From assembly GCA_026395335.1 (NCBI GenBank), contig JAPLYW010000015.1:1-61822 (forward strand): 61,822 bases of DNA. Direction: 5' to 3'. Below are positions 12,612 through 44,520 of this stretch, in pieces. This stretch comes from Candidatus Shapirobacteria bacterium. GTDB taxonomy: Bacteria > Patescibacteriota > Microgenomatia > PFEM01 > JAPLYW01. The notes beneath the pieces are model-generated. The model was given only the letters and a program-made list of their open reading frames with translations. It had not been told where the DNA came from and made no database searches. The position numbers were made by a program, and so were the translations under genes. How positions within the stretch are numbered: position 1 is the first letter of the stretch; every line of letters begins with the position of its first letter.

Positions 12612-12640
12612 TTGATTAAGGAATGATTTTCTGTTAAAAT
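12612..12640 (+). promoter_or_regulatory. Near-consensus extended -10 promoter upstream of a short hairpin-terminator
   Basis: TTGATT (12612-12617), 17-nt spacer ending in TGt, TAAAAT (12635-12640). Confidence 0.4.
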
Positions 12641-12656
12641 CAATTAGTTGAAGCAG

Positions 12657-12681
12657 CTGCTTCGGAAAGAAGCAGTTTTTT
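12657..12681 (+). terminator. Intrinsic-terminator-like hairpin with a competing upstream half-site
   Basis: CTGCTTC-GGAAA-GAAGCAG followed by TTTTTT. GAAGCAG at 12650-12656 can pair with the same CTGCTTC instead. Confidence 0.4.
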
Positions 12682-16188: not shown

Positions 16189-16238
16189 TAAGAATCTGTC
16201 GCCTTAGGCGACAGAACCTTGTTTTTCGAAGAATCAAG
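16189..16238 (+). repeat. Junction repeat, hairpin type (copy before rpsJ)
   Basis: TAAGAATC-TGTCGCC-TTA-GGCGACA-GAACCTTGTTTTTCG-AAGAATCAAG-ATG. Confidence 0.8.
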
Positions 16239-16547
16239 ATGGCAAAAGGTAGAATAAGAGTACGTTTAAAATCGTATGATCATCGAGTTATCGATGAAAG
16301 CTGCGAAAAAATAATAGAAGTTGCTTTAGCTAGCGGATCTAAAGTAATTGGTCCTATTCCTCTTCCTTCCCAAAGAAAATTAATTTCCGTTATCTCTAGT
16401 CCTCATACTGATAAAAATTCCCAAGAACATTTTCAAATTATAACCCATAAGCGTTTAATTGACATTCTTGAACCGACAGAGAGAACAATTGACTCCTTAA
16501 TGCATTTAAATCTTCCTGCAGGTGTTGACATCGAAATTAGGATGTAA
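16239..16547 (+). CDS. rpsJ: 30S ribosomal protein S10
   Basis: 102 aa with [14 protein letters not shown] and [12 protein letters not shown]. Confidence 0.96.
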
Positions 16548-16611
16548 ATACGTTCAAAAAAATAACCTCTTTTTTTATTTACAAAATTCAAGCGTTTCGC
16601 TTTTTATTTGC

Positions 16612-16730
16612 TTGCAAAATCCAAGGTTTTACCTTATAATTACTCGTAATGGAGGTGAGGCTCTTCTAGAGTTAAACTATATTTTAAACAAAAGCACGTT
16701 TGCTTAAGAGTGCCTCCGGCGCTCTTTTTA
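16612..16730 (+). promoter_or_regulatory. Promoter plus structured leader plus terminator between rpsJ and rplC (candidate attenuator or small RNA)
   Basis: TTGCAA (16612-16617), 17 nt, TATAAT (16635-16640). GGAGGTGAGGCTCTT (16651-16665) can pair with AAGAGTGCCTCC (16706-16717), enclosing hairpins GTTAAA/TTTAAC and AAGCA/TGCTT. The competing hairpin AAGAGTGCC-TCC-GGCGCTCTT is followed by TTTTA. Confidence 0.5.
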
Positions 16731-16753
16731 GTGGTTAAAATCAAGATAAAAAT

Positions 16754-17383
16754 ATGCAAGGACAGACAATTGGAATTAAATTAAAAACAGTACAAAAATT
16801 TACTCAAGACGGAGTCAGAATTCCTGTAACTTATTTGCAGGTAGACTCTGTTGAAGGTTTTAAGCCTGGAGATTTAGTCAAAGTTACTGGTTGTTCTAAG
16901 GGTAAAGGCTTTACCGGAGTCGTTAAGCGTTGGGGATTTAAAGGTGGACCCAAAACTCATGGTCAATCTGATCGTCAGCGATCTCCTGGCTCAATTGGTC
17001 AAGGGACTACTCCAGGTAGAGTCTATAAAGGCAAGAAAATGGCCGGTCGCAGTGGCGGATTAAAAGTAACGATTAGTGGCTTAACATTAATGGATATTGA
17101 GATGAAAGAAAAACTTTTTTTAATAAAAGGTTTAATCCCCGGAGCTAAAAAAGGCAAAATTAGTCTTATAAAATATAAAGAAAATAAGAAATTTGTACCC
17201 TTAATGAAATTGGGCGAAACAGAAATTAAAGAAACAGAGGAAGAAAAAATCGAACGATTAAGAAAAGAAGATGAATTAAAAGAAAATTTAGAAGAAGCCA
17301 ATGAAGCTAAAACAGAAGAAATAGTTAGTGAAGAAAAAGCTAAAGAAGTAGTTGAAAAGGAAGAAAATAATGTTAAAAATTGA
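16754..17383 (+). CDS. rplC: 50S ribosomal protein L3 with E/K-rich C-terminal extension
   Basis: GKGFTGVVKRWGFKGGPKTHGQSDRQRSPGSIG; tail ETEEEKIERLRKEDELKENLEE... Confidence 0.93.
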   Translation: MQGQTIGIKLKTVQKFTQDGVRIPVTYLQVDSVEGFKPGDLVKVTGCSKGKGFTGVVKRWGFKGGPKTHGQSDRQRSPGSIGQGTTPGRVYKGKKMAGRSGGLKVTISGLTLMDIEMKEKLFLIKGLIPGAKKGKISLIKYKENKKFVPLMKLGETEIKETEEEKIERLRKEDELKENLEEANEAKTEEIVSEEKAKEVVEKEENNVKN

Positions 17384-42267: not shown

Positions 42268-43224
42268 ATGAAAAAATTATTGATTATCTGTGGTCCAACT
42301 GCTACTGGTAAAACCGGTTTGGGATTAAAACTAGCTAAAAGATTTAATGGAGAGATTATTTCAGTTGATTCCCGACAGATTTATCAAGGGATGGATATTG
42401 CTACCGGTAAAGATATTAAAAATGGAAAATGGACCAATGATCATTGGGAACTTGAGGGAATACCTATTTGGTTGCTAGATATAATTTTACCTAACCAAGA
42501 ATTTTCTGTAGCTTATTATACTGATTTGGCTTGGAAAGCGATTAGGGATATTTGGGATAGGGAGAAACTACCGATTTTAGTCGGTGGCACTGGTTTTTAT
42601 ATTAAAGCTGTTTTAGAAAATATCCCTAGCCAGGGGATTCCGCCAAATTGGTTATTAAGGAAGAAATTGGAGAAAAAATCAGTTAAGGCGCTTTTTGGAG
42701 AATTAATAAAGTTTGATTCTTGTCGGGCTAAACAAATGAATGTTTCTGACAGACAAAATAAAAGACGTTTGATAAGGGCAATTGAAATTGCTAAATGGCT
42801 GTTAAAGAATCCTTTACCGGAAAAACAAAAATTGCCAACAGCAGAAACTATTTTTATCGGCTTAAAAACTTCTTTAGAGAAACTTTATCAAATAATTGAT
42901 CAAAGAATTGAAGAACATCTTAAAATGGGGGCAAAAAAAGAAGTGAAAGAATTATTAAAAAAAGGTTTTTCTTGGGAATTACCCTCGATGAGTGCTATGG
43001 GTTATCAGGAATGGCAACCTTTTTTAGAAGGAAAATCAGAAATTCAAGAAGTTTTAGCCCGCTGGAAATTTAATGAACATGCTTATGCTCGTCGTCAGAT
43101 GACTTGGTTTAGAAAAAATAAAAAAATTAATTGGTTTGACATTAGCTGTAAAGGATGGGAAAATAAAGTAGAAAATAAAATTATAATTTGGTACAATAAA
43201 AACAAAGATGCCAAGAAAAATTGA
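42268..43224 (+). CDS. miaA: tRNA dimethylallyltransferase
   Basis: ICGPTATGKTGLGLKLA, SVDSRQIYQGMDIATGK, YARRQMTWFRK. Confidence 0.94.
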   Translation: MKKLLIICGPTATGKTGLGLKLAKRFNGEIISVDSRQIYQGMDIATGKDIKNGKWTNDHWELEGIPIWLLDIILPNQEFSVAYYTDLAWKAIRDIWDREKLPILVGGTGFYIKAVLENIPSQGIPPNWLLRKKLEKKSVKALFGELIKFDSCRAKQMNVSDRQNKRRLIRAIEIAKWLLKNPLPEKQKLPTAETIFIGLKTSLEKLYQIIDQRIEEHLKMGAKKEVKELLKKGFSWELPSMSAMGYQEWQPFLEGKSEIQEVLARWKFNEHAYARRQMTWFRKNKKINWFDISCKGWENKVENKIIIWYNKNKDAKKN

Positions 43225-44206: not shown

Positions 44207-44216
44207 GTATTAAAAA

Positions 44217-44520
44217 GCCTAGAAAGCTCATAAGCCAGATTTTGTTTAAACAGTCATCTATCTTTGCCCTCGAACATCGACACTCGGAAAAGACTCCTAA
44301 TAGCGTGTCAGTCGGAGGTTGCAGCGGGGAGGGTTACCTCGTTTCACCCCCTCCATAGCTTTAGGCGACGGAGGGACTCGTCTCTGTGGCCCTATCTAGT
44401 TCCAACTCACCAGGGGGTTGGAATGCCGTTTTGCAACGGCCACCCTGTCTTTTAGCTGTCTGGACTTTCCTCCCGCCTAAATATTTAATTTTTGGCGGGC
44501 AACTGTCCGGCTTTCTAGGC
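44217..44520 (-). ncRNA. rnpB: RNase P RNA (bacterial type A-like, compact)
   Basis: Minus strand contains GGGAGGAAAGTCCAGACAGC (P4 5' strand region) and ACAAAATCTGGCTTATGAGC (P4 3' strand). The P1 helix GCCTAGAAAGC/GCTTTCTAGGC closes the molecule. It is a GC-rich island in AT-rich DNA with a U-run after the 3' end. Confidence 0.88.

Follow-up and report, generated by a model that had tools for sequence, protein, structure and literature searches.

To our knowledge, the balance of ribosomal protein (r-protein) synthesis is understood in only a few model bacteria, with regulators that are narrowly distributed, and we know of nothing on the subject for the Candidate Phyla Radiation (CPR), to which the ultra-small bacteria of the class Microgenomatia belong. 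In E. coli, the leader of the S10 operon is controlled by L4-mediated, NusA-dependent attenuation. The rplJL and infC-rpmI-rplT leaders of B. subtilis, which respond to L10(L12)4 and L20, respectively, are protein-dependent attenuators built from an anti-antiterminator, an antiterminator, and a terminator (PMC4538822). Leaderless polycysteine short open reading frames (ORFs) of mycobacteria act as attenuators by masking the ribosome-binding site (10.1101/834739), and an initiating ribosome stabilizes the 5' end of the hbs transcript in Bacillus (PMC5737220). Here, we describe a leader located between rpsJ and rplC in a contig of 61,822 nt (JAPLYW010000015.1; hereafter, the window) from a metagenome-assembled genome (MAG) of Candidatus Shapirobacteria bacterium (GCA_026395335.1). 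We read it tentatively, at somewhat short of an even chance, as a conserved cis-acting transcription attenuator of the rplC-led r-protein operon of the class Microgenomatia, in which a ribosome on the 5' block of the leader would lead to termination.

The window carries rpsJ at 16239-16547 and the rplC start at 16754, all features of the gap being on the plus strand. The 206 nt between the 2 genes, a distance already reported in the preliminary description of this DNA, contain in order a weak hairpin with a T-run (16590-16609), a promoter (16612-16640), the leader, and an intrinsic terminator (16706-16729). The near-perfect promoter of that description was present, with a -35 box TTGCAA (16612-16617) placed 17 nt before a -10 box TATAAT (16635-16640), and was kept in relatives. 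We infer a transcription start at approximately 16647-16649, and the predicted transcript extends over about 80 nt from the promoter to the terminator. Following TATAAT there are 8 bases, then ATGGAGGTGAGGCTCTTCTAG, 2 small hairpins, and the terminator AAGAGTGCC-TCC-GGCGCTCTT-TTT. The ribosome-binding region of rplC (16730-16756) comprises AGUGG 3' of the terminator and the start codon (16754-16756) 19 nt beyond it, and in relatives the Shine-Dalgarno (SD) sequence of rplC is of a weak GGUG type (GGUGG or GGUGCC) located 5-8 nt before the AUG. Promoter-like sites of such quality are common in the AT-rich window (40 found vs 41.2 expected). Among related leaders with enough flank, 95 of 98 were closely preceded by a -10 box, in most cases at 8 nt or 14 nt from the NUG, and 88 of those 95 had a TTG at a spacing of 16-18 nt. 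Just 5' of the promoter, 16582-16602 is a diverged tandem copy of the promoter spacer 16615-16635 (16/21 identical) that includes the hairpin AAGCG-TTT-CGCTT, and the -35/-10 spacer of several relatives carries a covarying inverted repeat (AAGCG/CGCTT, AAGGC/GCCTT, AAGGT/ACCTT). This promoter-spacer repeat may be a remnant of the rpsJ terminator or an operator.

Like the E. coli S10 leader, the element precedes rplC-rplD and the genes beyond, and it places an intrinsic terminator tens of nt before the first cistron, where regulated read-through would provide r-protein feedback. However, the E. coli leader stands before rpsJ, whereas the Microgenomatia element stands after rpsJ and has its own promoter, a predicted leaderless mini-ORF, a perfect SD sequence, and an explicit antiterminator, with no match in Rfam.

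We identified at the 5' end of the leader an invariant block, AUGGAGGUGA, that combines a start codon 8 nt after TATAAT with a perfect 8-nt SD sequence, neither of which the preliminary description noted. The SD-like block GGAGGUGA (16651-16658) is the exact complement of the 16S rRNA 3' tail, taken here from relatives, whose 16S 3' end is GGAUCACCUCCUUUCU; the MAG itself is without a 16S rRNA gene. The same strong SD form was found elsewhere in the genome as intergenic GGAGGTGA, followed by an ATG at 8-10 nt. The block of the leader has no start codon downstream at SD spacing, and an AUG overlaps its 5' side instead. Across the alignment of the order ATGGAGGT was invariant, with GA next in nearly all rows.

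The AUG opens a putative leaderless mini-ORF, ATG GAG GTG AGG CTC TTC TAG (MEVRLF*), at 16649-16669. Our working set comprised 105 distinct leaders from related genomes and metagenome contigs, and in 102 of them the mini-ORF had 6-8 codons, ending in any of the 3 stop codons. Its start was ATG in 98 homologues and GTG in 7, and TTG occurred in a diverged family (f24; L050 and L227). Diverged class members lacking GGAGG still had a -10 box followed after 7-14 nt by AUG or GUG and an ORF of 6-13 codons. We found no regulatory codons or arrest motif in the mini-ORFs of the 105 leaders, the sole conserved feature being the internal SD sequence. Because GAG-GUG is fixed at the nucleotide level, what matters appears to be the SD sequence and the act of translation, not the peptide.

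In the whole genome (G000), TANAAT was located 5-10 nt 5' of the ATG at 69 of 423 long ORFs. This placement accounted for 36% of all upstream -10 matches vs 11% in the internal-ATG control, a 3.2-fold enrichment, and an SD-like sequence was present at only approximately 12% of ORFs. These patterns suggest that leaderless mRNAs are widespread in this Microgenomatia genome. The leader AUG would have the layout of a leaderless gene, because its 8-nt spacing from TATAAT matches the leaderless-type starts of the genome. Examples of such starts in the window are at 42268, 32487, and 9864.

The intrinsic terminator, AAGAGUGCC-UCC-GGCGCUCUU followed by UUU (16706-16729), had a free energy of -12.3 kcal/mol alone. 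The 5' strand of the predicted antiterminator, GGAGG...CUCUU (16651-16665), is overlapped by the mini-ORF and pairs with 16706-16717 in a closing helix made of GGAGG (16651-55) with CCUCC (16713-17) and CUCUU (16661-65) with AAGAG (16706-10). In a transcript truncated before the 3' arm of the terminator, this closing helix was the minimum free energy (MFE) structure at -17.7 kcal/mol. At full length the terminator fold (-23.4 kcal/mol) was better than the antiterminator fold (-19.2 kcal/mol) by 4.2 kcal/mol, and the MFE structure consisted of the terminator and local hairpins. The closing helix and the terminator reusing its 3' strand had both been proposed in the preliminary description, and folding thus recovered each of them, the first in the truncated and the second in the full-length transcript. 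Not noted there was that the CCUCC of the terminator loop (16713-16717) mimics the anti-SD sequence.

Of the local hairpins in the full-length MFE structure, GGCUCU-UCU-AGAGUU (16659-16673), extended by GGU:ACU (16654-16678), sequesters the CUCUU strand and part of the 5' block and would act as an anti-antiterminator. Its equivalent, ACUC-UUUU-GAGU, was kept in relatives of the family, and in other families the hairpin P1 pairs GGUG with CACC. The inner hairpin AAGCA-CGUU-UGCUU (16692-16705) was exactly as first described, whereas the accompanying GUUAAA/UUU(A)AAC hairpin has one bulged A and is not the perfect 6-bp stem that had been claimed. The GCAC of the inner hairpin has GUGC in the terminator 5' arm as an alternative partner, and a (G)GCAC motif recurred 15-25 nt 5' of the terminator in many lineages. 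On the folds and complementarities, the anti-antiterminator, antiterminator, and terminator are mutually exclusive, as in the protein-dependent r-protein attenuators. Across the 105 leaders, the partner of the terminator 5' arm or loop in the truncated MFE structure was the 5' block in 78 and a middle segment (UUGGCAC:GUGCCAA type) in 24, whereas 3 leaders showed no partner; the terminator was present in the full-length MFE structure of 97. Single-sequence folding gave a z-score of only -1.07, so significance rests on conservation and lineage-specific complementarity and not on folding energy.

A DNA search of relatives showed that the second half of the gap was 72-97% identical in many families of the same order, a striking value given that the L3 proteins of the same genomes were only 55-75% identical. 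A covariance model matched exactly once in each of 21 of the 23 genomes of the order, and 22 were reached with a second, broader model, in keeping with the conservation in relatives that had been proposed as a check. The 2 models together added approximately 16 genomes scattered over other orders of the class Microgenomatia. Every covariance-model match inspected was directly 5' of rplC, and the genomes with the leader belong to the Microgenomates group of Patescibacteria (Woesebacteria, Shapirobacteria, and others). The phylum-wide covariance-model search returned nothing real outside the class; 4 weak matches, none of them 5' of rplC, were dismissed as terminators occurring by chance. Pattern scans across species genomes and metagenomes brought the collection, with the loci of the preceding searches included, to 107 distinct sequences, of which 103 had L3 downstream on the same strand. 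Of the other 4, 2 were cut by contig ends and 2 were chance matches, namely, one in a Puniceicoccales MAG and one in a metagenome, which were rejected as having no L3 downstream.

The conserved parts of the element were the TTG of the -35 box, the TATAAT -10 box, NUGGAGGUGA at 7-15 nt downstream of that box, the terminator and its run of 5-8 U, the weak GGUG SD sequence, and the rplC AUG. The middle of the leader (55-70 nt) differed in sequence and length between families. No conserved core for ligand binding, as a riboswitch would carry between its 5' end and expression platform, was present, and the riboswitch suggested in the preliminary description was set aside. The terminator was nearly invariant within the order, at approximately 90% identity across families, and in other orders the stem was GGUGCC/GGCACC with varied loops. 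Further, in 30 genomes of the class that were negative with the models, a hairpin with a T-tract within 100 nt 5' of rplC was present in 21 vs 2.9 expected from shuffles, with unrelated stems (GGCGCC/GGCGCC, GGCCCC/GGGGUC, AGCGCC/GGCGCU, and GUGAUC/GGUCAC). Judged by these comparisons, the terminator is a real, selected structure.

In relatives, extra genes fall between rpsJ and the promoter while the promoter and leader stay beside rplC, so the element travels with rplC. This bears on the earlier alternative of an independent sRNA of approximately 80 nt, and equally on a micropeptide gene made up of the promoter, MEVRLF, and the terminator, in either case a unit that only happens to occupy the rpsJ-rplC gap. 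The unit is indeed complete from promoter to terminator, and its terminated product would be abundant. However, the terminator always abuts the rplC start, with typically about 10-25 nt from U-tract to AUG even when genes separate it from rpsJ, and rplC has no other promoter; further, neither the peptide past MEV nor the middle of the RNA is conserved. We consider such a gene highly improbable, and the constant adjacency to the rplC start makes it unlikely that the element functions only as an sRNA.

Several loci in the set showed additional features. Insertions of 584-963 nt between rpsJ and the leader were found in L008, L009, and L016, with ORFs of 140, 154, and 307 aa (the 307-aa ORF being on the opposite strand), and L016 also had a duplicated fragment of the rpsJ 3' end (S10 residues 83-103) beside the leader. 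A single amplified genome (SAG) contig of 6490 nt (G013) held 2 inverted copies of rpsJ-leader-rplC (L012 and L062), which is probably a chimeric artefact of single-cell amplification. The Microgenomatia-specific leader and gene order were also present in public MAG records labelled as "uncultured Gammaproteobacteria" in several cases and as "Nevskiaceae" in one (L055, L058, L059, L061, L064, L066, L068, L070, L071, and L074), and these records look mislabelled. A second, different conserved leader was located just 5' of rplC in L205, L208, L218, and L219 (families f12, f35, and f39), where a hairpin GGUGGGAC-ACCUGAAGACAUCUAAGGA-GUCCUGCC with the conserved large loop CCUGAAGNCAUCUAAGG is followed by U5-6. 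It had no Rfam match and could be a protein-binding attenuator.

The region 16500-16800 matched no family of Rfam 15, the r-protein leaders included, as nothing was found on the plus strand at E<=10, and the whole window gave only bacterial RNase P RNA class A (44215-44518, minus strand, 119 bits). ARAGORN detected no tRNA or tmRNA at the rpsJ-rplC gap, and literature searches returned no published description of the rplC leader. An r-protein operon attenuator is a known kind of element; the Microgenomatia leader, as far as its sequence indicates, belongs to no described family. Compared with known r-protein leaders, its new features would be the position after rpsJ, the leaderless mini-ORF, and the use of an SD sequence and an anti-SD mimic as the switching helix.

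Of the covariation in relatives that had been proposed as a check, RNAalifold on 2 small subfamilies detected almost none, recovering only the terminator and a local hairpin. Because the near-invariant block rules out ordinary covariation, we used a permutation design in which leader segments were paired with their own or with other lineages' terminators over 30 distinct terminator tops. The mini-ORF region paired better with its own terminator 5' arm and loop (-8.66 kcal/mol matched vs -7.57 permuted, p~0.001), and so did the middle segment with its own arm top and loop (-9.92 vs -7.91 kcal/mol, p~0.001). When the 3' arm, equal in composition, was used as the partner, the middle segment gave no signal (p=0.61) and the mini-ORF region was borderline (p=0.053). 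A second grouping repeated the result, and the block also paired in a lineage-specific manner with the rest of the mini-ORF (p~0.001), which corresponds to the anti-antiterminator hairpin. Distant lineages with a changed block, paired by eye, fitted their own terminators (UUGGAGGAAAAA with ..CGUUUCC.. and GGAGGUGU with GCGCUUCC). By simple tally, 101 of 105 leaders had a sequence complementary to the block, in the form of a CCUCC loop or a CACC 3' arm.

These results bear on a reading without any sensing, in which the 5' SD sequence and mini-ORF would park a ribosome and protect the operon mRNA from 5'-to-3' decay by RNase J, with the hairpin and U-tract serving as a constitutive partial terminator or as a structural part of the rplC ribosome-binding site, at a fixed expression level. 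The leader is of the STAB-SD type in its sequence, with an SD-like block at the extreme 5' end and no start codon at SD spacing, and the genome encodes an RNase J homologue (E=1e-115), as do organisms with the Bacillus cryIIIA and hbs stabilizers, where an SD-like sequence near the 5' end likewise does not start the downstream gene. Stabilization by a 5' SD sequence or an initiating ribosome is documented in Bacillus (PMC5737220), and in some class members the rpsJ-rplC terminator has no visible promoter. In contrast to those stabilizers, which need no such pairing, the SD sequence of the Microgenomatia leader is complementary to the downstream terminator in a lineage-specific manner. A stabilizer does not predict that the mini-ORF region and middle segment should match the 5' arm and loop of the terminator in a lineage-specific way, nor that an antiterminator should be the MFE structure of the nascent RNA, and a promoter firing straight into a strong terminator would be wasteful unless regulated. 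We regard this reading as improbable.

The attenuator architecture that had been proposed for this gap was supported by the class-wide conservation, the nascent-transcript folding, and the permutation tests of complementarity to the terminator 5' arm. In the attenuator that we favor, a dedicated promoter would produce a transcript beginning essentially at its first base with AUGGAGGUGA, a block that would be the leaderless start of a mini-ORF of 6-8 codons overlapped by a perfect SD sequence. Approximately 55 nt on, the strong intrinsic terminator would present a 5' arm and loop (..GUGCCUCC) complementary to the block. In the read-through state, the free block would pair over a long range with the 5' arm of the terminator, and the resulting closing helix would pre-empt the terminator. 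In the window this helix would be GGAGG:CCUCC plus CUCUU:AAGAG, and in other lineages the middle segment (UUGGCAC:GUGCCAA) would help or replace it. RNA polymerase would then read into rplC-rplD and the genes beyond. In the termination state, the block would be sequestered by a 70S ribosome that initiates on the leaderless AUG and is held at the end of the mini-ORF by SD-anti-SD pairing, through which a ribosome at the stop codon, 8-14 nt downstream, would stay tethered. Alternatively, a 30S subunit on the SD sequence or the local anti-antiterminator hairpin may sequester the block. The terminator would then form, transcription would stop after approximately 80 nt, and the net effect would be negative feedback from idle ribosomes onto r-protein transcription.

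The sequences themselves show the anatomy of the element, its conservation and position, the alternative folds, and the lineage-specific complementarity; we infer where transcription starts, that the mini-ORF is translated, which factor is sensed, and in which direction the response runs. Negative feedback is favored because the switching strand is a ribosome-binding sequence and because, with the mini-ORF footprint masked, the energy gain of the antiterminator was only 3.8 instead of 6.1 kcal/mol, at the level of the shuffled background (3.4 kcal/mol). An initial count of paired 5'-arm bases with and without the ribosome footprint gave no discrimination, as the free arm always pairs, and was replaced by this energy gain relative to shuffles. 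The most specific form of the proposal is a ribosome counter, in which idle 70S ribosomes or 30S subunits would bind the AUG and SD decoy, prevent the block from pairing with the anti-SD-mimic loop, and so terminate the operon transcript; we consider this possible, if rather doubtful. The cells concerned reportedly contain only tens of ribosomes.

Several observations weigh against a ribosome-sensing attenuator. TGGAGGTGA was a requirement of the pattern scans, whose matches therefore overstate how invariant the block is; only the covariance-model matches are unbiased. The near-invariance of the block leaves no classical covariation for the block:loop pairing, and the phylogenetically independent test of the CCUCC or CACC association, with no more than 3 contrasts, did not reach significance. 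Past MEV, the mini-ORF peptides show no conservation (MEVRLF, MEVIGKV, MEVRNF, and others), and the AUG is located 12-15 nt after the -10 box in approximately one-third of leaders, which are not strictly leaderless. The antiterminator gain of about 6 kcal/mol is well below the terminator stability of about -12 kcal/mol, so a stabilizing factor may be needed. Lineages with a strong P1 hairpin leave the polarity of the ribosome effect ambiguous, and a sequence-specific protein would also fit how strongly the entire terminator hairpin is conserved within the order.

On polarity, the opposite response, in the style of trp, pyrBI, and antibiotic upstream ORF (uORF) attenuators, would have an untranslated P1 hide the block and lead to termination, with a ribosome that translates or stalls on the mini-ORF melting P1 and leading to antitermination. 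In many lineages the GGUG:CACC pairing of P1 falls within the mini-ORF, whose stop codon is at or just after the 3' strand, an arrangement that this response would explain, as it would the lineage-specific complementarity between the block and the rest of the mini-ORF. Leaderless short-ORF attenuators are also known in mycobacteria (10.1101/834739). However, with 6-8 codons the block would stay in, or tethered to, the terminating ribosome and would not be freed; the family of the window has no CACC partner; masking of the mini-ORF lowers the antiterminator energy instead of raising it; and positive feedback on r-protein synthesis would be an odd control logic. We assign the opposite polarity a low probability. 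As in the trp, his, pyrBI, antibiotic uORF, and mycobacterial attenuators, of which the mycobacterial ones are leaderless too, a 5' short ORF overlaps alternative pairings that would decide downstream expression in the Microgenomatia leader. Unlike them, this leader has no regulatory codon run or conserved arrest peptide, its ORF embeds a perfect SD sequence, and its targets are the r-proteins themselves. The mycobacterial short ORFs mask a ribosome-binding site, whereas the predicted output here is an intrinsic terminator. By analogy, the nearest relatives in logic would be these mycobacterial leaderless attenuators (10.1101/834739).

The conservation of the terminator hairpin GAGUGCCUCCGGCACUC at approximately 90% across families of the order, more than pairing requires, suits a version of the same attenuator in which the sensor is an operon-encoded r-protein (L4, L3, or another) that, in excess over rRNA, would bind the 5' or terminator hairpin and promote termination. 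We consider such a protein sensor unlikely. The layout of anti-antiterminator, antiterminator, and terminator is that of the B. subtilis rplJL leader (PMC4538822), the controlled operon begins with rplC-rplD, and the antiterminator is thermodynamically weak alone. Further, the rplJL and infC leaders likewise have 3 mutually exclusive structures and a default read-through via an antiterminator formed before the terminator, and a short translated leader peptide is also present in the rplJL leader. In contrast, those leaders mimic the rRNA site of their protein, whereas the conserved blocks of the Microgenomatia leader had no similarity to the 16S and 23S rRNA of relatives, in which searches at the sequence level by shared 9-mers and with mismatches yielded only AT-rich chance matches. 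The B. subtilis leader peptide is located downstream, has its own SD sequence, and counters Rho, whereas the Microgenomatia ORF is at the 5' end, would be leaderless, and overlaps the antiterminator strand. No Rfam r-protein leader matched, and nothing like the loops or bulges that proteins usually read is conserved in the middle of the leader. A protein sensor would also leave unexplained why the invariant block is an exact SD sequence with a start codon at leaderless spacing. On balance, the sequences point to the ribosome as a sensor at least as likely as the L4 or L3 of the preliminary description.

Two other hairpins upstream in the window were recorded. Between tuf and rpsJ, a hairpin at 16195-16215 (TCTGTCGCC-TTA-GGCGACAGA followed by ACCTTGTTTTTCG) is unrelated to the rplC leader, and no promoter was visible between it and rpsJ. 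At 12612-12681, 5' of fusA, a promoter-like site leads into GAAGCAG-CUGCUUC-GGAAA-GAAGCAG-U6, which forms another promoter-then-terminator unit with a competing half-site and has no SD-like block.

The element described here is a class-wide, previously undescribed leader before the largest r-protein operon of Microgenomatia, whose transcription it very probably limits. The evidence for common leaderless initiation in this lineage, which comes from sequence, matters for gene calling and expression tools in the CPR. The leaderless mini-ORF, the SD decoy, and the terminator resembling an anti-SD sequence suggest a principle of control with the ribosome as a possible ligand, and because the anti-SD sequence is universal, this principle is directly testable in vitro with ribosomes of E. 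coli or B. subtilis. Should the ribosome prove to be the ligand, the leader would represent a new control principle for ribosome homeostasis, in which assembled free ribosomes, and not free r-protein, would feed back directly on r-protein transcription.

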